Positions 1,331 through 58,800 of a DNA stretch of 64,000 nucleotides are shown piece by piece. This DNA is from Eledone cirrhosa (lineage: Eukaryota), in the NCBI GenBank assembly GCA_964016885.1, contig OZ024742.1, forward strand, positions 324,136,001 to 324,200,000, in the 5' to 3' direction. How positions within the stretch are numbered: the first letter of the stretch is position 1; every line of letters starts with the position of its first letter. Under the pieces are notes generated by a model. The model had not been told where the DNA came from. It saw only the letters and a program-made list of their open reading frames with translations, and ran no database searches. A program made the translations under genes and the position numbers.

Positions 1331-1458
1331 CAGTTACATTCTTTGATTATTTCTGTGGCCAACTTCAGATAATTTCTAGTATTATGTTGGCAGAGTGAGG
1401 TGGGAGTATTTGGATAATCATGATTTTATAAATATTTTTGTTTGTTTTTGTTTTCCAG

Positions 1459-1524
1459 AAACAAGAAGAAAAAAATTCCATTGATGACAGGAGAAGAAGT
1501 GGATATGGATCTCAGTGCCATGGA
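1459..1524 (+). CDS. TAF2: TAF2 coding exon (first in window; gene is 5'-truncated by the window edge)
   Basis: ccag|A AAC AAG...ATG GA|gtaagg encodes (R)NKKKKIPLMTGEEVDMDLSAM(D), nearly identical to the metazoan TAF2 segment RNKKKKIPLMNGEEVDMDLSAMD. Confidence 0.95.
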
Positions 1525-1963
1525 GTAAGGAGAATAAATTGCTAACTTAGCAATTATAATTAGAGTATATTAGAATAAATTATGGTTAGAGTAAATTAGA
1601 ATAGATTACTAACTAGGAATAAATTGGTAATTCACTTTATCAAAGAACTGGAACTATTTTATTTTAGATATTTAACTATTTTAATAGAAACCTGTCTAAT
1701 GCCCCTCTCCCATCTATTTTATTATCCAAAACTGTTCATTTTAACTCTTTGGCAACAACCTGACCAAAGCCAGCTCTGGTTCTATGAAACAAAACCACAT
1801 GTTTTAAAAGGTTCCCATTTAAATTAAACTATTCTAATTTAATTATATATATATATATATATATAAATGAAGTAATTCCGTCGGAAAGGTACAGGAAAAA
1901 AGAGTGCTCTATGTAGGTTACAGATCTTATTAGTTATGTAATAAACAACATAAGATATTTATT

Positions 1964-2019
1964 TCATTTACCAGTGGTTTCTTGAAAGCAAATAAATCTG
2001 CTTTCAGTCGTCAGAATGA
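1964..2019 (-). ncRNA. Identical hammerhead motif, antisense copy in the left arm of the foldback
   Basis: Exact reverse complement of 2397-2452. Confidence 0.8.
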
Positions 2020-2184
2020 GAAAAACCTGGTGTTTTTATTGAATGTGGATTTGAAAACAAAAATATAAGAAATATGAAAGTGAGGCTGAGGAAACAACGT
2101 GCGAAGAAGAAGAAAAGGATTATATATATATATATAAGTATATATATACACACACACACACACATATATACATAATATATACAT

Positions 2185-2232
<48 letters not shown>

Positions 2233-2396
2233 GTGTGTGTATGTATATATATATGTATATATGTGTGTGTGTGTATATATACTTATATATATATAATCCT
2301 TTTCTTCTTTTTCGCTCGTTGTTTCCTCAGCCTCACTTTCATATTTCTTATATTTTTGTTTTCAAATCCACATTCAATAAAAACACCAGGTTTTTC

Positions 2397-2452
2397 TCAT
2401 TCTGACGACTGAAAGCAGATTTATTTGCTTTCAAGAAACCACTGGTAAATGA
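2397..2452 (+). ncRNA. Type I hammerhead ribozyme motif (core intact), sense to TAF2 intron
   Basis: Stem I UCAUU/AAUGA; CUGACGA 2402-2408; stem II UGAAAGCAGA-uuua-UUUGCUUUCA; GAAA 2435-2438; short stem III with near-palindromic CCACUGG; GUA triplet 2445-2447. The 10.1-11.1 position is a C-A mismatch. Confidence 0.8.
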
Positions 2453-2540
2453 AATAAATATCTTATGTTGTTTATTACATAACTATATATATATATATAT
2501 ATATATATAAATCAGAGTAATTTAGTAAATTTATTCATTA

Positions 2541-2668
2541 TTTCATTATTCAGATGGTATTTGTAACTTCACAAAATATTTTTATCATCATTTTCATCAT
2601 CATTTTAAAACGATGATGATGATGATAAAAATATTTTGTGAAGTGAAGTTACAAATATCATAATGAAA
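2541..2668. repeat. Second short foldback centred on (CAT)n-ttttaaaa-(GAT)n
   Basis: atggtatttgtaacttcacaaaatatttttatcatcat pairs with atgatgataaaaatattttgtgaag..ttacaaatatcat. Confidence 0.8.
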
Positions 2669-2989
2669 TACTGAGTAATTTTAGTAAATCACTGATATCT
2701 TCACTAATTAAATGAAACACAGTTATTTCATGAGAAATCTGGTACCAAAAGAGTTGATCATCCTTGCTGTTGTTGGTATTATTTAGTCGAGTGGTTTTCT
2801 CATAGCAGTTGATGGCAACTTTTCTTATCTTTTAAAGGTTATCACCCTATTTTATAAGCTACTTTATAGCAGCTCCACACATGAGCCCATCATTCTCAGT
2901 GCTGTGTAAGAATCCGAGTTATCAGCTACATACACACGATATATAAAAGTATTTCTTCTTTTTTATCTTCCCTTTTACTTGCTATCTAG

Positions 2990-3122
2990 TGCTGATTCTC
3001 CTGTTCTGTGGTTACGTGTGGATCCTGAAATGACATTGCTAAGACAGGTTACTTGGGAACAGCCTGATTACATGTGGCAATATCAGCTGAAATATGAACG
3101 TGATGTAGTGGCACAATGTGAA
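2990..3122 (+). CDS. TAF2: TAF2 coding exon 2 (window numbering)
   Basis: ctag|T GCT GAT...GAA|gtaagt encodes ADSPVLWLRVDPEMTLLRQVTWEQPDYMWQYQLKYERDVVAQCE; phase matches the previous exon. Confidence 0.96.
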
Positions 3123-3372: not shown

Positions 3373-3765
3373 TGTGGTGGGAAAAAGCTATCTCACTTAC
3401 CGCTTTTCAAAGGCGCCGCTCTGATCTCCACTGCATGGTAGTTTGAAGACCATTTCGTGTACGTCCTTCTTCCTCGGTTGGCCGTCTCTATCCACGTATC
3501 AACAGCCCCATATCGTTTTGCTCTTTTCACTAGCGCTGCTATCGTCCTGCTCCTTACTCCTCGCCTGCCTGCTTCCGACTGCCTAGCACCGGGAGATCCC
3601 AAACTGGCGTTTACACCATTGCTAGGTACTACGCTAGGTACTGCCCAAACTTGCGTTCACCCCGTTGCTAGACACTGCCCAAAACTGGCGTTCGCCCCGT
3701 TGCTAGGCACCACTAGGCACCTGCAGCCACCGCACGCCACACCATACCCACACGCCCCCCTAATC

Positions 3766-6633
3766 TCAAGGATCAATTTCCTCCTCGTCTCTCTGCATGT
3801 GGAAGTCTGCTGTCCAGGTTGGTGGTCTACGACATCGTTGCGATCTCCGTAGTATTGGGGCAGGGCTCTGAGTTTCCACCTCATCTTGGGTTTCCTCTTC
3901 CTCGGAGTCCGTCGACACAGTGACTCTTCTTACATCCAGGACATGACGTGGTACCCCGTCCACAGACACATTGTTCTTTGAATTTACGGCCGTCACTGTT
4001 CCCCTTCCCCATTGAGATGTGCAACGTGCATCTGGGGGCTTAACCCAGACTTCTTTGTCCACCTGCACGAATGCACTCTCTTTAACCACTGGCCGTTGTG
4101 GTGGCGTGCACGGGTGCCTCCACTCGTATTTGAATACTGCTCTGTGTGGCACCAATTCCTCGACCTGTCCAACCCGAGGGGACATGTTATACCAGAACAC
4201 TGCCTCCATTGGTGAGACATGGCCCCGCTCCGCCATTGCCTTGATCGTCCGGTGGTGTCGCTCCACGATTCCATTCCTGCTCGGCCTGTGCGCCGCTCTG
4301 AAGAAACGGTTCACCTTCCATCCATCGAGCATCTCCCTCAGTGCCTCCGAGCGAAACGCTGCGCCGTTGTCCATCAGCAGTTCGTCCACAGGGTCCCACT
4401 CCAAGAACACCTCTCTCAACGTCCGCACGATTTCCTCGGCCGTTCCAGTCCTCATCTCCCTCCATATCGCCATTCGACCTGGTCCACAGTTGACCATCGA
4501 GAGGTACGTTCCCTGTCGGTAGTGCGTCACATCCACCGCTAATCGCTTCCAGTCGCGATCCACCGGGAGACTTCCCGTTTCGTGTACACCCGGGGCGGGA
4601 TCAATGGACTGACATCGGATGCAGCCTCTAACCACTCCCTGAACACTGTCTGCTAACGTCCGGGTCGATTCTCCTGGCTAGGAACAGGCTCCTATCCACC
4701 CCCATGTGGTGCATGTCATGCAACCCCGTCAGATCCGACTCGGTCAGCCGACACACAGCAGCTATCTCATCCTCTACCTCCTCCGGCGCTCCCATCCAGG
4801 CTTTCTTCACCCTAGTTAATATGTCCGCCCTGTTTTTCTCTGAGGGCACGAAAACTACGCTCAGCCTCAGGTCGAACTCGGTGGCCAGCTCTCCTAAAGT
4901 TCCCAGGCGGCGCTTTATCAGCATCTCCGCCGCGCCTCTCGTTCGCACTCTCTTCTCACTGGTGAGCACTGATCTCACCCATCCGAGTACAGTAGCCGAG
5001 TCGGTGCGTATCTCGATGGTGTGCAGCCCCCACCGCAGGGCGAGGTTCACTCCTCTCAACACCGCGTCCAGTTCGGCCACATGTGATTGCAGTCGTCCTT
5101 CTTTCTAAGCCAGGCTGCATCCTCGACCTCAACACCTCCTATCTCCAACGTGACACCCAGCGCTATGCTGCTGGCATTGCACCACACGGTCCCGCTCTGT
5201 GATTTGGGAACATACCAGCGTCCCCGCACTGGGTCGTCGGCCTTCACCCTTCCCACGATCTCCTGCATCATGGCCACCGTCCTCTCTCCCACTCTGTCAC
5301 TCCAAGTCACTCCTCCCGCTCGTCTCTTGACATAGCTGCATGCCGTCCGGAGCCACCCAGCGATCGGGTAGTGACCCACCAGCTTTCCGCACACCGAGAA
5401 AAGCTCCCGCCTACTCATACTTTGGCCCAGTTCCGGAACTTCGTTTCGCCTCTGGAATACCAAAACGCCCGTCCTGTCTCGCCGTAGCCTAAGTCCCAGT
5501 GCGGCTCCTCCCTCCAATGCTTCTGATGGCTTCGCAGTCAGTCCGTACCCCTGTAAATGGCTCGTGACCTCCGCCGCCAACACCACCAACTCGTCCACTA
5601 AGATGTCGTCAATGTAGGAGTTAGTAGCCCTCTTTATCTTGTCAGCCTTCCCCAGAACGGTCTTGAGGACCGCTGACATGATCTTCGGTGCGGAGCTCAG
5701 CCCGAAACCGAGTCTGGTCAGGCAATATGTCCGGCCCTTATACCTGACCAGCTGATACCGCCAGAGCTTCTCAGCTATATGCAACTGCAAGTAAGCCGAC
5801 TTTAAGTCTACGATCGCTGAACCCCCCGTCCTGCGTCTCCACTCACGCAGGGTTTCCCCGCAGATATCCGTGACCTCGCCACCCGTGTGGCATGACACGT
5901 GTTCGTTCAGCTCCCGATAGTCCAGCACCGGCCTCACCTTGCTCTTCGTGGGTTGCACCACCGCCATTAACGGCAATACTCTGCACTTCACCTCCTCCTT
6001 CCAGGGAAGCAGTATGCCCCCTTCGATCCATTTCTCTACTTCTCGCTCGAACTTGCTCCTAACGTTTCCCTTCAATGTATGTTGATAGCAGCCCACTTTG
6101 GTCTTCAGTGTTGGTGGTTCTCCCTTCCAGTACCACTCAACAACCCATCGCTGCCCATCAAACACGGCCTTGAAGTCTTTGTCCTGCACAGTGTAAGCGG
6201 GGTATTCCTCCTCGTGGGCCTTCTGGTTCTCATGACGTGCACTCACAGCGCATGCCGATGCAGCGGCGCCAAACGACACACCGAGGTTGTCCACCGTGAC
6301 GCCTCCTAAACGGCCAATCGCGTCCATGCCCATAGCCACGCCGATCCCATCCACCACACTGTCTACTACGATGGCCGAAAGCTTTATCCTCCTTCCCCGT
6401 ACCGCTATTTCCACCTCGCTGCGACCTCGGCATTCGATTTTCCTGCCGTCGACTGCCCTTCCACTGCTCTTCCCTCCCCACCTCTGCGCCACCCCCGCGG
6501 TCACCAGTGTCGTACAGCCCGTGTCCATGAGGGCTCGCTGTGGCTTCCCCCTCACGAAGACTTCCACCACAGGCAGCGCCGCTACTCGTAAGGGGCAACT
6601 ACCGGCACAGTAGTTCCCCTTGGATCGTTTCCC
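3766..6633 (-). pseudogene. pol: pol of the LTR element (protease, RT, RNase H, integrase), broken into three ORFs
   Basis: Protease ALMDTGC; RT VDLKSAY, FGLSSAP, YIDD; RNase H AELDAV and IRTDS; integrase HHCC (HDMHH..CIRC), VDVTH, MDNG, NGIVER; frameshifts near 5080 and 4635. Confidence 0.92.
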
Positions 6634-7353
6634 TGGTCACAGTTAGTAGCGATGTGGCCTGGTCGCTTACACCGGTAGCAAATTATCTCCGGCCTCAACT
6701 CCCTACAGTCTCTAGCCATGTGCGGACCATGGCAACGAAAACAGCGCCCTCTAAACGTTCGCGTGCGACCGCGTGCGACCGCGTGCCGAGGTTGCCTCCC
6801 TTTCACCGTTTCGCTGCCAAGTGTCCTGAGCCTCCGTAGTTGCTATCGCCGCAACACTCTTTTTGGCATCTTCTGCTATGATCCGGGCTTGTTCCACCAG
6901 TGAACGCATTTCCATCTCTTTATAACCCGGGACTTGCTGCAGCCTCACCGCTATGTCGTCTGGAAATCCATTAATGAACGCCAACCACACCGTGCGTTCG
7001 CATTCCGCCTGATAACCAGCCAACATGGCCAACCGCGTTATTTCCGCTGCGAAAATGTCGACGCGTTCACCATTCCACCTAATTCTCGCCAGCTTAGCAA
7101 AAGCTGCCAACGGTCCGTCGGCGAATGCATCCATCAGACGCCGCTCAATCTTCTGCACATCTCTTTGGCTATGCTCGTCCAACTCAAGGAAGAGTACCAG
7201 CGCGTCTCCCTCGAGGTAGAGTGCCATTAGGCCAGCCACATCCTCTATCTTCTGCAAACTTGCGACCAGCCAAACTTTACGCAGCCAAGCGATTACATCA
7301 CCCTCCCCGGTAAATGCCCTGATGGCTTCGCTCGTCCGTAGTCTTGTCGCCAT
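6582..7353 (-). pseudogene. gag: gag of the LTR element (two Zn knuckles), frameshifted by a 10-nt duplication
   Basis: ORFs 6751..7353 and 6582..6806; knuckles CFRCHGPHMARDC and CYRCKRPGHIATNC; gcgtgcgacc is duplicated at 6761-6780. Confidence 0.88.
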
Positions 7354-8924
7354 CCTCTGATTTGTCTAGCGGTAAGTGACACAAAAAAAAAATAAAACCA
7401 ACAACAGACTCCTCTCTGTTTTTCCAGTAGCTTTTTCTTCTTTCTTCTTTGTTCCGTCAGATCTGTTTCCAGTGTCCGAAATAGCTTGTGGTGGGAAAAA
7501 GCTATCTCACTTACCGCTTTTCAAAGGCGCCGCTCTGATCTCCACTGCATGGTAGTTTGAAGACCATTTCGTGTACGTCCGTCTTCCTCGGTTGGCCGTC
7601 TCTATCTTCGTATCAACAGTCCCATATCGTTTTGCTCTTTTCACTAGCGCTGCTATCGTCCTGCTCCTTACTCCTCGCCTGCCTGCTTCCGACTGCCTAG
7701 CACCGGGAGATCCCAAACTGGCGTTTACGCCGTTGCTAGGTACTACGCTAGGTACTGCCCAAACTTGCGTTCACCCCGATGCTAGACACTGCCCAAAACT
7801 GGCGTTCGCCCCATTGCTAGGCACCACTAGGCACCTGCAGCCACCGCACGCCACACCATACCCACATATAGTACATAGAAAAATGTACAAATGTTAGTAA
7901 AATGAAGAGTGTATGATGGGACTGAAGTCCATATCATTAAAACACCCAAGAAACATCTTATGAGATGAAACTTTGCTGGAGGCCAGTTAAACTAAACTGT
8001 AAATTTCAATTTTTTTTACCTCTACAAAGTCGTTTGAGAATCAGAATCTTGAGCAAATGGATTGATCTTGGTTGGCATACATTTGCTCATCATATAGTCA
8101 AGCTTGCTTGGATTAAATAGGAAAGATACAACACTTACATTTACCAAATGACGACCCGTCATAGTATTGACTAGACTTGATGTTGTTTAACTTTAGTGAT
8201 CAAACAAGAACCAGTATTTTCAACATGATTTGGCCATAAACAACAGATGGGTTAGAGCAGCCTACCTTACAGTGTGTACTGGGTGTGTTTTTTCATGGCT
8301 TCCACCACTATCATTTTACAGAATGTACTGGCTGTGTTTTTTATGGCACCAACACCAGAAACATTGTCACATGCTCTTCCTGACTGAAAGGTCCTCTCAA
8401 TCCCTATCTTGTTTCTGTTTGATTGTCAACACTGTAGCCTTTGCTCACTTACTGCATTCACTTTTACTGTTGTAGTTTTTGTATAAGTGGATGTGTCTTT
8501 TGTATTATGGCATCTCACCAGTTAGCTTGATCCTGTGTCATCAAGTTGACATAATATAAAAGACCCATTTTCCTGTACAAGTATTGCAACACTAAATGTA
8601 AATGTAGTGAGTAACTCAAAACACATCATTGACAACTGAATGGAGATAATCATCATCATCATCGTTTTTATACCCAGGTTTCCATGCTGTCATGTGTCTG
8701 GATGGGAGGGTTTGAAACAATATTTTATAACTGGATGCCTTTCCTGACACCAACTCTTTCAATCACCTTCTATAGCAAGTAGAGATATGGTGTACTTATT
8801 AAAAAGACTGGGATACACAGTATTATATATATATCATCATCATCATTTTTAATGTCTGTTTTTTCCATGCTTGCATGGGTTATATGTATATGTGATTGCG
8901 TGCATATATATATATATATATATA

Positions 8925-9272
8925 TCATCATCATCATTTTACGTCTGCTTGTGGGACGGGAACTGATTCTGGCTTGGTTTCTACAGCTGGATGCCCTTCC
9001 TAACACCAACCTCATTTACAGTTAGTGCTTTTTGCCGTGGCGCCTACACGACCACTTTGCAGTGTGGGCTGGGTGCTTTTTTTATCGTGGCACCTCCACG
9101 ACCACCTTGCAGTGGAATGATAGGGACATCTCATTTCTACAGCTGAGTAAACTGGAGCAATGTGAAATAAAGTGTCTTGCTCAAGGAAATAACACATCAC
9201 CCGGTCTGAGAATTGAACTCACAACCTTTCGATTGCAAGCCCAATGCTCTAACCACTAAGCCATGTGCCTCC
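8925..9272 (-). mobile_element. tRNA-derived SINE (family A) with RTE-derived 3' tail
   Basis: Reverse complement of the copy at 9421-9750; pol III A box TGGCTTAGTGG, B box GAGTTCAATTC. Confidence 0.85.
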
Positions 9273-10225: not shown

Positions 10226-10273
10226 ATTGATTTACAATTGTTTCGTCCCTTATTGGAACTTATCAAAATCAAT
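10226..10273 (-). ncRNA. Degenerate minimal type I hammerhead motif in a (TA)n-flanked element (~9996-10352)
   Basis: Minus strand reads AUUGAUU-uUGAUaA-GUUCC aauaa GGGAC-GAAA-CAAUUG-UA-AAUCAAU: 7-bp stem I, palindromic stem III, two core substitutions. Confidence 0.7.
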
Positions 10274-16850: not shown

Positions 16851-17335
16851 GTAGTAACAATACCATATATTGTATCGCCTGAGTACTTGACTGGTACTTT
16901 ATTTTATCAACCCCATAAGGATGAAAGATGACGTTAACCTCTGTGGTTAAATCAGAAATGCTACTAAACATTTGTCCAACCCCCTAATGACACTGCCAAT
17001 CGACTACCATGTTGTACATTAATAATTGTAGGCACAAGGCCAACAATTTGAAGGGGAGGGGAAAGTCGATTAAATCAACCCCAGTGCATTACTGGTACTT
17101 TATTTTATCGACCCTTGTAAGGATGAAAGGCAAAGCTATCTTCGGCAGGATTTGAACTCAGAATGTAAAGGATCATAACTAAATACTGCAAAGCATTTTG
17201 TCCGACGCTCTACCGATTCTGCCAGAATACAGTGTACTCTAGTGTACACCTCTGTTTAGTTATTCTGGTAACAGTTTTGGTTGTGATAACATATATAGTT
17301 TTATATATTTTTCCACTTTCTTTTTTGTCTTGCAG

Positions 17336-17475
17336 CTGTATTCGTGCAATCCGTGTGTTGCAAAAGAATGGTCATCTTCCCAGTGATCCGCAGATATTTG
17401 AGAGTTATGCAAAGTATGGTATTTACAGAGATATACGACTAGCAGCTTTGGAAGCCTTGGTTGACTATATTAGTG
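17336..17475 (+). CDS. TAF2: TAF2 coding exon 8
   Basis: gcag|C TGT...AGT G|gtgagt encodes CIRAIRVLQKNGHLPSDPQIFESYAKYGIYRDIRLAALEALVDYIS. Confidence 0.95.
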
Positions 17476-22056: not shown

Positions 22057-22244
22057 TATATATATATATATGGAGAATAGGGTGGCTGTGTAGTTGGTAG
22101 TTAAGGTAGGCTTAAAAATAGGAATAAGAATAAGAAGAAAGCAAGAAGGGGGGGGGGGGGGGGTTCCCTCATCAGTTGTCTACTGGGGGTCTCGGATATA
22201 TATATACTTACACACATATCTATCTATCTATCTATCTATATATA

Positions 22245-25200
22245 TCGGATCAGCAGCATGCGACAGCTAGCCCCCACCTTTGACGACTTTGAGATGCACG
22301 CATCTCTCTGTCAGCCCGGAGGTGGGGGTGGGGTTGTCGTTCTGCTGCAAAAACATATGGGCCTTGCAACACAGATAGTTCACTTGGACCCAGGGGGTCG
22401 ACTGGTGGTGCTGGACCTTGGCAGTGGTGAAGGTAGAGCCTTTAGGCTGATAGCCGCATATGCCCCTTTTGGGACAGAGCGGCCCGACTTTTTCCAGCGT
22501 CTGGAGTCTTTTCTAGGGACGTCCCGTTCCCTGCTTTTAGTGGGGGATTGGAATGGTATCCTGGATGCACGTTGGGACTATGCAGGGGCATGTCCCGATA
22601 GAGAGGGGTGCAACAGCCTCAAGGGGTTACTCGGCCGATTTGACCTGGCCGATAGATTTCGACTAGATTTTCCGACGGTGCCAACCTGGTCTTGGTCAAA
22701 TCGCAGCGGATCATCTAGATCGTACCTAGATAGATTTTTAGTTAGAAATAAGGACGGGGACTTTTTAAGTTGTCCAGAAATGCTCATGGTTGGCTATTCA
22801 GACCACAAGTTGGTGACCTGCATGGTCAACCTTGATAGAACGCATAGACAGGGCCCCGGTTACTGGAAGCTCAACTTGTCCTTGCCGGCAAGTAGAGCCT
22901 ACAGGAATCGGATTAGTACGTTAGTTAAGGAACGGTTGACTGGAGCGATCGTCAACAGCAGGTGGTGGGTATCTCTAAAGAGAGAGATTAGAGTAGTCTC
23001 GATTGAATTTAGTAAGGTTCTAGCTGCGGATAGGAATAGGAAGGAAAGGGAGCTAATAGATAGAGTAGAAGAGGCAATTAGAAGCGGCGACGTGGCCAGA
23101 GTGCTAGCGTCGAGAACGGCTTTGAGCCAGTTTTTCGACGCGAAGCACGAAGGCTGCGTTGTCCGAAGTAAAATACGTGCTCTAGGGAACGAGGGGGCCA
23201 AAGCTGTTAGCTGGGCCCGCGTGACAGAGGCCAACAGTGGAACTAAATCCACCATCCGGTCTTTGCGAGACCTGGATGGACGGGCGATTCTTGAGCCTAA
23301 GCAGATGTGTGAGGCCTTTCAAAGGCACTTTGCCCGACTGTTCGGGAGGGGCGGGGAGCCGGTTGGGAACGTGGACTTCGGTCCATACCTCGACGGCCTG
23401 CCGCGCCTCTCGGACAGGGAGGCGAAGTCCTGCGAGGAGCCGATTTCGGCCGCTGAGATAGAGGACGTGCTGAGCCAATGCGGCAAACGCAAATCCCCGG
23501 GTCTCGATGGTCTTCCTTACGAATTATATCTAGCTATGCCGGACTTGTTCCCCGATCTCCTCGAGGCGGTCTACTGCAACTGGCAACAGAACGGGAGAAT
23601 TCCCTGTACTGTGACCAAGGGCGTAGTCACGCTAGTGAGGAAGGACGAGAACAAGGGGGACGAAATAAGTAACTTCAGGCCCATAACTCTGCTAAATACA
23701 GAGTTACAGATTTTGGCCAAGGTGCTAGCAAAGAGGTTGGCGCTTGTCGTGGGCAACCTGGTGGGAGATGCGCAGACATGCGCTATCCCGTCCAGGTCCA
23801 TCCATGACAACCTCCACCTCATGCGATACATCATAGAGAGGGTTGGGAACGAACCCGGCTTTGGTGGGGCTCTGATCAACTTGGATCAATCTAAGGCGTT
23901 CGATAGGGTCGACCATGGTTACCTGGATGCGGTGCTAGCGGCGGCAGGCTTCGGACCCGTTTTCAGGGGCTGGATCACTGCTATGCACAGCAGCCGCATC
24001 TGCTCTAGGGTCAAGGTGAACGGCTACCTCTCGGAGCCGTTCAAAATCGCGCGGTCCATCCGACAAGGGTGCCCTCTCTCCTCCCTTCTGTATGTGTTGA
24101 CTCTCGAGCCACTACTGCGGAAGTTGGAGTTGTTGCAGGGCATCCCTTTGGAACCGGGATTGCGGAAAGCGGTGTCAGCCTACGCCGATGACGTGACAGT
24201 AATGGTGTCGACGGCCTCCGAAATCGAGGCGGTCGGCACCTTACTGGAGGAGTACGAAAAGTTCACAGGGGCTAAGCTGAACCGGGACAAGTCGATCGGT
24301 TTGCAACTCGGCACGTGGAGGGGCAGACCGATGCCCTCCGATGGCGTCGTCGGACGCTGGACGGAGGGCCCGGTGAAGTTGCTCGGGGTCTGGTTCGGAC
24401 CGGACCTCCAGGTGGAGAAAAACTGGGCGGAGGTTACGAACAGGGTGTTTGCACTGACCCAGAAGTGGGCCAGTTGCAAACTATCCCTGAAAGGTCGGGC
24501 GGAGGTGGCGAACACTTATATGGCGTCCGTCATCTACTACCGCCTGACCGTAGTGCCCTGCCCAAGGGAAACCCTCACCAAGATGGAGCGCGCGCTCTTC
24601 CAATTCCTTTGGAAGGGGCGGGCTCCTATGGTGAGGAGATCCATCTGCTGTCAACACCCTTCGAAAGGAGGGCTGGGGATGCCGTGGCTAATGATGCGTA
24701 AACACGCATTAAGGCTACGGTACCTCTACGTATTCCTCACCGGACAACCGGTGTGTGCCTCGTTTGTGAGACGAACCTTTCCCAGACTCGTCTCACTCAC
24801 CGAGCTGCAATCCTGGGTCAAGCAAAGACCGAGAAAACTGGGCGCCTGGCACACTGAGTGTGCCCAGGCGCTCACCGCCCTCTGGCAGGCGGATCCGGTT
24901 ATCAGTGGAGACTCCACCGCAACATTCTATAGAGGGCTGGTACGCAGCAGGTGCGACGACGCCCTCGGAGAAGCCCTAGACATGGAGGAGGACGAACTGG
25001 CCAGCCTGTTCGGTAGGACATTCAGCCCGGGACCTATGGACAACTTCCAGAAGTCCCTGGCCTGGCAGTGCTACCGAGGGGCTTTACCCGTTCGAGAAAG
25101 GCTCTACAGACACGGGCGCCCGGGTAGGGACCCCGCCAAAAAGATCTGTCCCAGATGCGTGTGCGACGAGGAAACCGTTGCACACGCATTGGTACACTGC

Positions 25201-25830
25201 TCGGGCGTAGCCGATCTGTGGGGCTATGTCGAACAACTGCTGTCAGGGGTGGGACCGATCCGGTTGACCACCGAGTCTATTGTAATGATCAAGCCGCCTC
25301 CCCCCTTCAAAGATGAAGCAGAGGCGGTGTTTCTGTGCGTAATAGCCATGGCGAAAGAGGTTGTATGGTGGACGCGTCTGAAAGGACTGAGGTCAGGCAC
25401 CTTTCTCTCTGGCCAACAACTGGTCCGTTTCTTCCGATATCATTTCGGAAGAAGGATCAGGATGGAGAGAGAGGTGCTGCACCCCAGTCGTTTTTATGAA
25501 AGGTGGGTGAAAGTGGCGAGAATGGCCCGTGTGAATGGGCCTTCTCTTTACATAAGCCTGTAGGTGGAAAAGAGGAAGGAACGAGGGAGCACCCCCTCTC
25601 TGTGCTCCTGAGGAAAAGGGTTGCACACTTTTTTCGGGGGTGTGTGCGACCCCCCAAGGCGCCTCCTCTCTATTGAGGATTTTGTTAAAAATTTTATTTT
25701 TTGTTATATCTTATTTTATTTTTATATTTTGTTATTGCCTCCTCCATATTGAGGACGCCTTTTTGTGTAAACTCCCCCCTTTGTACTTGCCCACTTTTGA
25801 TGCCCTAGTGGCAAATAAAAGAAACATATC
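22245..25830 (+). mobile_element. Tx1/L1-clade LINE copy including 3'UTR with AATAAA, ending in (TA)n
   Basis: GC-rich block in an AT-rich host; 3' end gcaaataaaagaaacatatc(ta)n; no ORF1 present. Confidence 0.9.
22258..25563 (+). CDS. Tx1/L1-clade LINE ORF2 (APE endonuclease, RT, C-terminal Zn finger), N-terminus truncated but uninterrupted
   Basis: 1101 aa: LVGDWN, YLDRFL, SDHKL (APE); KSPGLDG, FRPITLLN, LDQSKAFD, RQGCPLS, YADD (RT); CPRC..ETVAHALVHC. Confidence 0.93.
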   Translation: MRQLAPTFDDFEMHASLCQPGGGGGVVVLLQKHMGLATQIVHLDPGGRLVVLDLGSGEGRAFRLIAAYAPFGTERPDFFQRLESFLGTSRSLLLVGDWNGILDARWDYAGACPDREGCNSLKGLLGRFDLADRFRLDFPTVPTWSWSNRSGSSRSYLDRFLVRNKDGDFLSCPEMLMVGYSDHKLVTCMVNLDRTHRQGPGYWKLNLSLPASRAYRNRISTLVKERLTGAIVNSRWWVSLKREIRVVSIEFSKVLAADRNRKERELIDRVEEAIRSGDVARVLASRTALSQFFDAKHEGCVVRSKIRALGNEGAKAVSWARVTEANSGTKSTIRSLRDLDGRAILEPKQMCEAFQRHFARLFGRGGEPVGNVDFGPYLDGLPRLSDREAKSCEEPISAAEIEDVLSQCGKRKSPGLDGLPYELYLAMPDLFPDLLEAVYCNWQQNGRIPCTVTKGVVTLVRKDENKGDEISNFRPITLLNTELQILAKVLAKRLALVVGNLVGDAQTCAIPSRSIHDNLHLMRYIIERVGNEPGFGGALINLDQSKAFDRVDHGYLDAVLAAAGFGPVFRGWITAMHSSRICSRVKVNGYLSEPFKIARSIRQGCPLSSLLYVLTLEPLLRKLELLQGIPLEPGLRKAVSAYADDVTVMVSTASEIEAVGTLLEEYEKFTGAKLNRDKSIGLQLGTWRGRPMPSDGVVGRWTEGPVKLLGVWFGPDLQVEKNWAEVTNRVFALTQKWASCKLSLKGRAEVANTYMASVIYYRLTVVPCPRETLTKMERALFQFLWKGRAPMVRRSICCQHPSKGGLGMPWLMMRKHALRLRYLYVFLTGQPVCASFVRRTFPRLVSLTELQSWVKQRPRKLGAWHTECAQALTALWQADPVISGDSTATFYRGLVRSRCDDALGEALDMEEDELASLFGRTFSPGPMDNFQKSLAWQCYRGALPVRERLYRHGRPGRDPAKKICPRCVCDEETVAHALVHCSGVADLWGYVEQLLSGVGPIRLTTESIVMIKPPPPFKDEAEAVFLCVIAMAKEVVWWTRLKGLRSGTFLSGQQLVRFFRYHFGRRIRMEREVLHPSRFYERWVKVARMARVNGPSLYISL

Positions 25831-32697: not shown

Positions 32698-32806
<109 letters not shown>

Positions 32807-32860
32807 CGTTTCTGAATTTGTTTAGCAAGATTCTTTATCTGAAATCATGTGTTGAAACCG

Positions 32861-33464
32861 ATATTGTTATACTTTGGGAGGGTCATGTTGCCAATAAGAT
32901 AGAACACAAGGGTAAATTAGAGAACATAGAAATAAAAATAGAATCTACACACAGAAAAAATGCAATGTTTAGACAAATCACAGAGGCAATAAACATAAAA
33001 GAATTACAACCAAAATTAAATAGAAAACATGAGTGGAACAGCAACATCACAACTTACAATTAAGGACAAAATGAAAACACACATAGAACAAACAACCAAC
33101 CAATAACATGTAAATAAATAAACAAATAGATAAATGAACACAAACACACACATGCACCCGGATGTGGCGCATGCGCAAACTGAGCACACAACACACACAC
33201 AGAAACAAAATGGCGTAGGACAGAAGAAAGGAAAGGCACAGAAACAAAGAAAGGAATCCCCAGTCACTGAAGAGGTCACAGAGTGTGTGACGAAAGGACT
33301 ATGACTATATATAAACAACTATCTGGTTGTGGAACCAACTAACCAACCAGAAATTTATAAATTTGTAGATTTGTAAATTTATAAATTTATAAATATATAA
33401 TAAATTGAAGTGAAAGCAACTGGTGCGTGTGTTTCTTATTGGCAACATGACCCTCCCAAAGTAT

Positions 33465-33472
<8 letters not shown>
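32861..33472 (+). mobile_element. 5'-truncated Penelope-like element: GIY-YIG C-terminal remnant, pLTR with hammerhead, 39-bp inverted terminal copy
   Basis: KLENIEIKIESTHRKNAMFRQITEAINIKELQPKLNRKHEW resembles the PLE endonuclease tail (R..EA..I....P.LN); 32861-32899 is the reverse complement of 33434-33472; ends in (TA)n. Confidence 0.75.
33262..33306 (+). ncRNA. Minimal type I hammerhead motif in the PLE pLTR
   Basis: AGUCA-CUGAAGA-g-GUCACA gagug UGUGAC-GAAA-ggac-UA-UGACU; all core residues present, one extra G at the base of stem II, stem III vestigial. Confidence 0.75.
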
Positions 33473-33511
<39 letters not shown>

Positions 33512-40851: not shown

Positions 40852-41156
40852 ATATGCCACCCAACCCTAGTTCAGCTTCGTCATTTGGTGGGTTGAAGTT
40901 GATGTCTCAGTCGTCTCTGGACTTCTCAAGGCTTGGCTCCAGTGAGGAAAGTTCCGGTAAATTGCATAAGACCAAAAAGAAGAAGAAGAAGAACAAACAC
41001 AAGCACAAGCACAGACACAAAGACAGCCGTCCGGAGAAGTCAGACTCTTTCTCCTCTCGTGACAAAGACCGATCTGATTGGTCTCATTACAATTCTCCCG
41101 GCAGCAACTCTCCTGGAACACAGCCCACAAGCTCTCCAGAGTTCCAAGTTATCTGA
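40852..41156 (+). CDS. TAF2: TAF2 terminal coding exon with Lys/His-rich tail
   Basis: ccag|AT ATG CCA...ATC TGA; contains KKKKKKNKHKHKHRHKD, the characteristic TAF2 C-terminal basic/His stretch. Confidence 0.92.
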
Positions 41157-41479: not shown

Positions 41480-43100
41480 GTCACCTTTGCCATTCATCCT
41501 TCCGGGGTTAATAAAATAAAGTACCAGCCAAGTATTGTGGTTGATCTAAATGACTGACCCCTTTCCCTAAATTCCTGGCCTTGTTCCTATGTAAAAAAAA
41601 CAAATCCATTACCTTATCATAATTAAGCATATTAGTATTAGTTAATCATAAAGGATGGTGGGTTGACAGAATTAGTAGAGCATTAGATAAAATGCCTGGT
41701 AATATTTGTTTGCTTCACTATACTTCCTCCGTTCAAATCCTTTTAGTAACGGTTGTCTTGCCTTTCATACTTTTAGGGATCAATGAAATATAGTACTTGT
41801 CAAGACTGACGTCGATATAATTGACTGTAGCCTCTCTTTCAAAATATCTGCGCCCCTTGTAGAAAATTCAGAAATTACCATCATTAGACAAGACATTGAA
41901 TAACTGGATAAATATAGTGGTATTTAGTTACATCTCTTTACATTCTGATATCCAATCCTGCCAAGGTCAATTTAGCCTTTTATACTTTTAGAGGCCAATA
42001 AAATATAGAACTTCACAAAACTGCAAGCAGCATAATCAGCTATAAGTCTCCCTCAAAACATTTGTGCCATTCATCATCACCGCTAGCATGGGTTAGACGG
42101 GTTGTCCTGTTGTGGGCAGTGTCTGGTTGGCTGACCTTGTCTTGCTCATACAAGAACTGATTCTGGCTTGATTTCTACAGCTGGATGCCCTTCATAACAC
42201 CAACCTCATTTACAGTGAGTGCTGGGTGCTTTGTTGCTGTGGCACCTCCACGACCACTTTGCAGTGTGGGATGAGTGCTTTTTTGCCGTGGCGCCTCCAC
42301 GACCACTTTGCAGTGGAATGATAGGGACTCCAGTCCTATCATCTCATTTCTACAGCTGAGTAAACTGGAGCAATGTGAATTAAAGGAAACAACACATCAC
42401 CTAGTCCGAGAATTGAACTCACAATCTTTCGATTGCAAGCCCAATGCTCTAACCACTAAGCCATGTGCCTTCACTGTGGAAATTGTTATCATTATTAAAT
42501 ATTGAATGTGGCAGAGTTGTTAGTGTTGACTAGAATATTTGTTCTGGCTCCTTACATTCTGAGTTCAAATCCTACTGGGATCAGTATGATAAAATACCTG
42601 TCAAACATGGGGTTGAATGAATCAATTAATCCCTTCCCCGAAATTGATGGCCTTGCACCTAAATTAGAAATCATTTGAGAGAATTGTTAAAGTTTCAGAC
42701 AAAATACTTTGCAGTTCCAGCTTTTTGCATTCTGGGTTAAAATCTTGCTGAGGTCAACTTTGTCTTTCATTTTTCCGAGGTCAATAAAGTATCAGTTAAG
42801 TACTGGGGTCGATATCATCGATTTTCCTTACTCCCAAACTGCTGGCCTTGTGCTAATGCTAGAAAGAATTATTTCTCTATGAACAGAGGGTGGTGGATTG
42901 GCAGATTTGTTAGTGTTGAACAAAAGATTTTGCTGCATTTAGTTACAGCCCTTTACAATTTGAGTTCAAATCCTGCCAAAGTCAACTTTGTGTTTCATCC
43001 TTCTGAGATTGATCAAATAAAATATCAAGTACTGGGGTTGATTTAATCAACTTTCCCCTTCCATGAAAATTGCTGGCCTTGTTCCTAAATTATAAACCAT
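41480..43100 (+). mobile_element. Cluster of ~6 co-oriented degenerate tRNA-derived SINEs (family B) in the putative TAF2 3'UTR, plus an antisense family A/RTE-tail copy at ~42071-42472
   Basis: Repeated ttggcaga..gttagagc / tctgagttcaaatcc / ctttcatcct..ggggtc.ataaaat / gctggccttgt modules. Confidence 0.75.
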
Positions 43101-58574: not shown

Positions 58575-58800
58575 GTATATAAAACAAGATGGTGTAGGAC
58601 AGAACAAAGGAGAGACACAAAATAAAAACCTAGTCAATGAGGAGGTCACAGAATGTGTGAGAGCTTTGACAATATATAAACAGCCTTCCAGTTATCGAAC
58701 CAACCAGCCAACCGGAAATATATAACAAATTGAAGTGAAAACCAACAGGTGCGTGTGTTTTTATTGGCAACATGACCCTCCCAAAGTATAACAATATATA
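58575..58800 (+). mobile_element. Second, more decayed copy of the Penelope-like pLTR
   Basis: Matches 33205-33472, including the end ttattggcaacatgaccctcccaaagtataacaat(at)n; ribozyme core decayed (aatgaggaggtcaca...gtgtgagagc). Confidence 0.85.

Follow-up and report, generated by a model that had tools for sequence, protein, structure and literature searches.

Hydra-clade Penelope-like elements (PLEs) target (TA)n and bear hammerhead ribozymes, and the motifs RWK, DKT and CxCX5C are those defined for the clade (PMC8557442, accessible sections). The same sections describe PLE insertions in which a 5'-truncated copy is inverted and the tail is confined to one end, and list Hydra-1_Obim from Octopus bimaculoides with a hammerhead whose long stem II is not G-C closed (PMC8557442). 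Recently active Penelope-like families are reported from Octopus vulgaris (PMC13282606, accessible part). Minimal hammerheads (min-HHRs) of metazoans form pairs on opposite strands 100 to 700 bp apart, and the monomers showed no cleavage in vitro according to the available text of PMC4209133. The hammerhead of an anole PLE needed its protein to cleave, and PLE protein acts on both strands of its target in vitro by cutting and extending them, with two reverse transcriptase (RT) start sites bounding the tail (PMC11167929, available text). The literature of 2014 and 2021 already contains hammerhead pairs on opposite strands, PLE tails in inverted arrangement and a Hydra family from octopus. Antisense masking of an intronic PLE hammerhead was not found in the literature searched, including the accessible part of PMC7761336.

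The locus compared here with these systems lies in a 64-kb stretch of the Eledone cirrhosa genome (64,000 nucleotides, referred to as the window). The host gene, TAF2, is encoded on the plus strand from approximately 28 kb before the window to position 41153 (tblastn, three homologues); the exon at 17331-17471 matched human TAF2 (phmmer, E = 1.1e-17), and the nearest named homologue was from Argonauta. Exon matches were obtained by tblastn at 1457-1525 and 2991-3122, and GT/AG boundaries set the intron between them to 1525-2989. The whole insertion falls within this intron, confirming the preliminary description, which had placed a hammerhead in sense orientation in TAF2. All features are compiled in Table 1.

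Table 1. Coordinates of the insertion, its host intron and the internal control, given as positions in the window
Feature	Position	Strand	Basis
TAF2 coding exon upstream of the insertion, 5' edge approximate	1457-1524	+	tblastn, 96% identity to TAF2 homologues; GT donor at 1525
TAF2 intron, 1,465 nt, containing the insertion	1525-2989	+	tblastn, GT/AG
(TA)n target flank, left	1844-1865	.	sequence; family copies end in (TA)n
PLE tail, ~65 nt, left arm only; continues into the ORF leader in full-length units	1866-1930	-	similarity search; L061, L077, L097
5'-truncated PLE 3' end, inverted arm, including element-derived TA/TG microsatellite	1931-2212	-	92% identity to L005 over 387 nt
Hammerhead copy, antisense in TAF2 pre-mRNA	1964-2019	-	script
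Head-to-head junction inside self-complementary TA run, best symmetry centre ~2212	2185-2232	.	sequence symmetry
5'-truncated PLE 3' end, sense arm, short tail-less 3' end	2213-2485	+	91% identity to L005 over 297 nt; 95-96% to best other copies over 190 nt
Hammerhead, type I minimal, core intact, predicted cut after 2447	2397-2452	+	script, folding, variant comparison
(TA)n target flank, right	2484-2509	.	sequence
TAF2 coding exon downstream, 3' edge approximate	2990-3122	+	tblastn, GT/AG
Second core-intact minimal hammerhead, other PLE family, sense in a later TAF2 intron, no covering twin (internal control)	33262-33306	+	pattern search, folding

Complementarity between the arms at 1931-2170 and 2246-2485 reaches 95% over 240 nt; of the 191 unique bases, 2 differ, and the microsatellites are of unequal length. 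The long foldback of the preliminary description was thereby borne out, apart from its left end: there, the arm runs 65 nt further (1866-1930) into a stretch that recurs in the family as a tail, is not mirrored in the right arm and had been overlooked. The left arm carries the long 3' end and therefore really begins at 1866. As had been noted, the microsatellite is mirrored as well, since it is part of the 3' UTR of the element (91-92% identity to L005). The insertion sits in (TA)n, the target of the Hydra clade, and the copy itself (1931-2212 and 2213-2485) contains no ORF.

Sequence reading and script agreed on an intact-core, type I minimal hammerhead at 2397-2452 (+), as proposed before. 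It consists of a 5-bp stem I, CUGACGA, C2409, a 10-bp stem II, A2434 and GAAA, followed by a 2-bp stem III with a triloop and A15.1-U16.1 and by GUA at the predicted cut. Thus, the CUGANGA, GAAA and NUH core elements and an open stem I are all present, and the lengths of stems I and II together with a near-palindromic stem III, which forms an 8-bp self-duplex (-8.2 kcal/mol), are those of PLE min-HHRs. The script also verified that 1964-2019 is the exact reverse complement. The C-A mismatch previously noted at 10.1-11.1 is real: the G10.1-C11.1 closing pair, a consensus but not universal feature, is absent, 62 of 65 copies have C facing A at this position, the base of stem II, and this state is fixed in the subfamily of 2397-2452. 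U-A occupies the position in the Hydra subfamily with intact ORFs and in 7 of 15 variants. The covariance models did not recover the motif; Rfam hammerhead models gave no match to 2397-2452 at gathering score, nor among the 64 matches at E ≤ 10. When 15 variants were compared, which had been hand-picked from 60 distinct ones and whose kinship inflates the score, 92% of the cells were paired and 4 of 19 pairs had changed on both sides; this level was reached by 13 of 500 shuffles, and slid controls gave 0-2. Such modest stem covariation would fit function in the ancestry of the element.

The family comprises at least 2,101 copies, the number of exact genomic matches to one of its 38-mers, and the exact 50-nt core of the TAF2 copy occurs 55 times. 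A genome search with the right arm yielded 1,457 candidates; among the best 40, which were scored, the top other copies were 95-96% identical. The search with 1866-1965 gave 1,259 first-look candidates. Family copies run into (TA)n at approximately 38 nt (short end, 21 of 39 hits) or 103 nt (long end, 16 hits) beyond the cut site; the other 2 hits had different 3' ends.

Relatives of the insertion flank a 714-aa RT/endonuclease ORF. In L077, a same-strand pair on C1 with members 4.6 kb apart, hammerhead and tail are followed by a broken RT/endonuclease ORF, a long 3' UTR and a tail-less hammerhead; its first pseudo-LTR (pLTR) is 90% identical to the TAF2 arm. The tail of L061, which is 94% identical to the TAF2 copy, leads into the same ORF leader as in L077, and this continuity of tail and leader was present in L061, L077 and L097. 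A protein search with the PLE ORF, in which the best 150 of 66,992 first-look candidates were scored, led to ten loci with open frames of 713-718 aa and pLTRs 81-84% identical to the TAF2 arm (12 stretches examined). A hammerhead-bearing pLTR flanks a single ORF with RT and C-terminal GIY-YIG in L077 and L095-L105. The long flanks of L071-L076 held no ORF tied to a TAF2-type pLTR, with an unrelated-looking PLE ORF fragment in L073, and a same-strand pair on C27 was a local duplication without ORF. The subfamily of the TAF2 copy is accordingly linked to the ORF through pLTRs of 81-90% relatedness and the tail-leader junction of L061 only.

The ORF contains RWK, DKT, a CxCX5C linker and C-terminal CxxC and CxH (compared with section 11 of PMC8557442). 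A Pfam search of the ORF and its fragments returned no named domain; its top homologue, P0004, carries Pfam GIY-YIG. Compared by eye, ORF and hammerhead architecture resemble Hydra-1_Obim. Judged by these ORF motifs, with the proteins compared by eye, 2397-2452 is the pLTR end of a Hydra-clade PLE. The earlier assignment to a PLE-type hammerhead in an inverted pLTR pair is borne out by the family similarity, the ORF-bearing relatives and the head-to-head layout.

The young Hydra subfamily with intact ORFs has a second, diverged hammerhead approximately 400 nt after the stop codon and 1.4 kb before the one in the pLTR (L097:4082-4174 and like places in L087, L088, L092, L095-L103 and L105). The cut site is mostly GUG (14 occurrences), which hammerheads are not known to cleave. 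It may be the relic of an older pLTR or a non-cutting dimer partner.

The mirrored arrangement was followed through the family at 51 other loci (57 minus 6 duplicates), picked as best matches to arm or tail and hence not a random sample. At 20 of these, an opposite-strand copy was found within 1.5 kb, in every case head-to-head and with the tail confined to one of the arms; at 14 of the 51, the complete hammerhead is contained in both arms. Inspection by eye of the first 100 C1 copies listed gave 9 pairs less than 500 bp apart and 3 at 4-5 kb, all head-to-head. An inverted 5'-truncated copy with a one-ended tail thus characterizes the TAF2 insertion as well as all 20 twinned loci, and by this likeness the mirror copy in TAF2 is the standard inverted 5'-truncated partner of a PLE. 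As the preliminary description states, the antisense arm is transcribed first in TAF2, which it took as potentially protective. The order results from the head-to-head arrangement, whichever strand is read, and holds for any such pair. As a consequence of geometry it is no sign of selection.

The analysis established the family, its copy number, its connection to an RT/GIY-YIG ORF, the head-to-head geometry and the one-arm tail. The locus is very probably a single 5'-truncated Hydra-clade PLE insertion in (TA)n of a TAF2 intron, composed of two head-to-head 3' ends, in which the hammerhead is a likely inert passenger. Based on the published PLE biochemistry, the enzyme of the element would have cleaved the TA target on both strands, and two cDNAs would have been primed, one from the distal start site with the tail and one from the proximal site without it. 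Synthesis of both presumably ended prematurely, and the self-complementary TA run near 2212 would be where they were joined. A MITE or foldback DNA transposon was rejected on the grounds that both arms are 3' ends of a PLE and that the tail is asymmetric. A non-LTR retrozyme was likewise rejected, as there was no short head-to-tail tandem and no second same-strand copy in 164 kb, and the tandems looked at were ORF-bearing units of 4.3-4.6 kb.

Folding of the whole intron paired the twin with the hammerhead at a probability of 1.0, and the same pairing was obtained by equilibrium folding at each of five transcript lengths. During transcription of TAF2, the arms are thus predicted to zip into a hairpin of approximately 270 bp that would bury the sense motif; the trapping in double-stranded RNA suggested previously agrees with this model. 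In the sense arm alone, the probability of stems I and III was at most 0.01, since the stem III strand pairs with an ACCAG further upstream. An 81-nt fold had a z-score of -3.47 (0 of 200 shuffles folded as well), and its minimum free energy (MFE) structure was not the hammerhead. As for the possible dimerisation raised earlier, no same-strand family copy that could act as partner was present in 164 kb. Even without its twin, 2397-2452 would be predicted to miss a dimer partner and to misfold; silence, and not regulation, is what is predicted for the motif. MFE folding gave the control at 33262-33306 no stem I either, so that predicted misfolding cannot separate active from inactive motifs.

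This control is a further minimal hammerhead in the same pre-mRNA, with the canonical G10.1-C11.1 pair present. It lies in a 5'-truncated PLE of a second family at 32805-33480 (+). Relatives with 92-98% identity to this PLE encode a CX4CxxC linker and GIY-YIG in their ORF; by the linker motif, this family appears Neptune-like. It was counted by pattern search (3,388 exact copies of a 35-mer), as a DNA search with 33262-33306 missed even its own locus. No twin of 33262-33306 was found in 164 kb; a 104-nt inverted stub ends short of the hammerhead. A decayed copy of the second family (74%) with a broken hammerhead core was observed at 58582-58704 (+).

The earlier proposal that the twin protects an essential gene from self-cleavage is not supported, in view of this unshielded motif and of twins at 20 of 51 loci. 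An unshielded sense hammerhead tolerated in TAF2 makes protection of 2397-2452 look unnecessary, though by a single case from a different family. In a broader form, the hammerhead, as monomer or dimer in trans, would harm host pre-mRNAs, and sense intronic copies would persist when masked by a twin, the TAF2 copy being one such survivor. The predicted complete masking of the motif is what this explanation expects. At TAF2, the two arms differ less from each other (2/191, 99% identity) than those of most other family pairs, and they have in common two substitutions seldom seen elsewhere (in 0 of 61 and 1 of 74 other copies). Conversion from arm to arm could yield such a state; no donor copy with both was found, and five other places share one of them. 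Moreover, the bare 56-mer adopts the hammerhead fold within 0.4 kcal/mol of the MFE (pair probabilities of ~0.3 for stem I and ~0.65 for stem III), and retrozymes are under-represented in Xenopus introns according to the accessible part of bioRxiv 10.64898/2026.07.22.740005. However, the solo control with its G10.1-C11.1 pair is tolerated in the same gene (one example, different family), twins are as frequent as roughly 4 in 10 sampled loci, and the published behaviour of min-HHR monomers and of the protein-dependent anole hammerhead (PMC4209133, PMC11167929, available text) also speaks against cleavage in the host. We consider survival by masking very improbable. Extended to octopods at large, with their thousands of hammerhead-bearing PLE ends, head-to-head insertion of PLEs would amount to built-in self-silencing, with selection removing solo sense-intronic copies of active subfamilies and keeping twin-masked ones matched by conversion; this we offer as a long shot. 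If it were true, hammerhead activity in vivo could be read from how frequent twins are on each strand across the genome.

That the foldback is an artefact of assembly or of a chimeric read is very improbable. Its centre on a TA microsatellite and the near identity of the arms would be compatible with such an origin, but 2 unique positions and the lengths of the repeats distinguish the arms, the tail is on one arm, the flanks are not mirrored, the TAF2 exons are collinear on both sides, and 20 other loci have the same architecture.

Long near-perfect duplexes are typical ADAR substrates and coleoids edit heavily, and editing of the hairpin itself is plausible; it would be likely to occur with cleavage predicted to remain unaffected. 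Virtually no credence is given to a switch along the lines of the preliminary description, in which ADAR, for which this duplex is well suited, loosens the hairpin and the freed ribozyme cuts TAF2 pre-mRNA and tunes its level: the 56-bp twin duplex amounts to -96.5 kcal/mol versus approximately -11 for the hammerhead fold, 0 of 120 simulated trials with 10-50% of the adenosines as G or unpaired released the motif, all five core adenosines were intact in only 1 of 40 trials at 50% editing, and a dimer partner was missing within 164 kb.

Further elements were observed in the window. The same intron has a second AT-rich imperfect hairpin (2553-2662) directly 3' of the insertion, with only sub-threshold matches to miRNA models. 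An LTR retrotransposon at 3442-7897 (-), with LTRs at approximately 3442-3852 and 7556-7897 and broken gag/pol-like frames read from the ORFs, is antisense in the next TAF2 intron. At ~10226-10273 (-), a hammerhead-like motif has a U3-A8 core variant, a 7-bp stem I and a palindromic stem III, and a 40-mer of it has one exact copy in the genome. A 1,152-aa open frame at 22105-25563 (+), sense in a TAF2 intron, belongs to what we take, by its motifs, to be an L1/Tx1-like LINE; several RTE-like and CR1-like LINE fragments were read from ORFs elsewhere. Rfam matches at 8123-8241 (-), 9206-9263 (-) and 42403-42464 (-), one 5S rRNA-like and two tRNA-like, are probably pseudogenes or SINE heads.

Taken alone, the TAF2 copy matters little: there are thousands like it, and the kind was described in 2014 and 2021. 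It is useful as a test case of whether PLE minimal hammerheads cut RNA in vivo: with several young families and thousands of copies, twinned or solo, a count by intron strand could reveal selection against cleavage.

Compared with the accessible sections of PMC8557442, the TAF2 family is like Hydra-1_Obim and other Hydra-clade PLEs in RWK, DKT, CxCX5C, the C-terminal endonuclease and the (TA)n target. Close to the 3' end, it also has a hammerhead in which stem II is long and stem III reads ACCA-n-UGGU, as they do; an inverted, 5'-truncated copy together with a one-ended tail is a further trait in common with relatives of the clade. It differs from the Hydra elements described there, mostly below 3 kb, in a unit of approximately 4.3 kb with a long microsatellite-rich 3' UTR, in a tail of ~65 rather than 30-40 nt, and in clear pLTR tandems, whereas Hydra-1_Obim is listed without pLTR and is a different family. 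With the metazoan min-HHRs in the available text of PMC4209133 it shares type I, a stem I of 4-5 bp, an enlarged stem II, an extra base after A9, a palindromic stem III suited to dimers and opposite-strand pairs 100-700 bp apart, but not the conserved G10.1-C11.1, which is replaced by C-A here and by U-A in the subfamily with intact ORFs. The RECK-type intronic hammerheads of amniotes are also type I and sense in a host intron, and are conserved across species (PMC6155905, accessible part); the TAF2 copy is one of thousands of young repeats. The PAc Poseidon element of Anolis, as presented in the available text of PMC11167929, belongs to another clade, and its mechanism was determined in vitro whereas that of the TAF2 insertion is deduced; common to both are two classes of 3' end split by a tail reaching into the ORF region and an AT-rich target.
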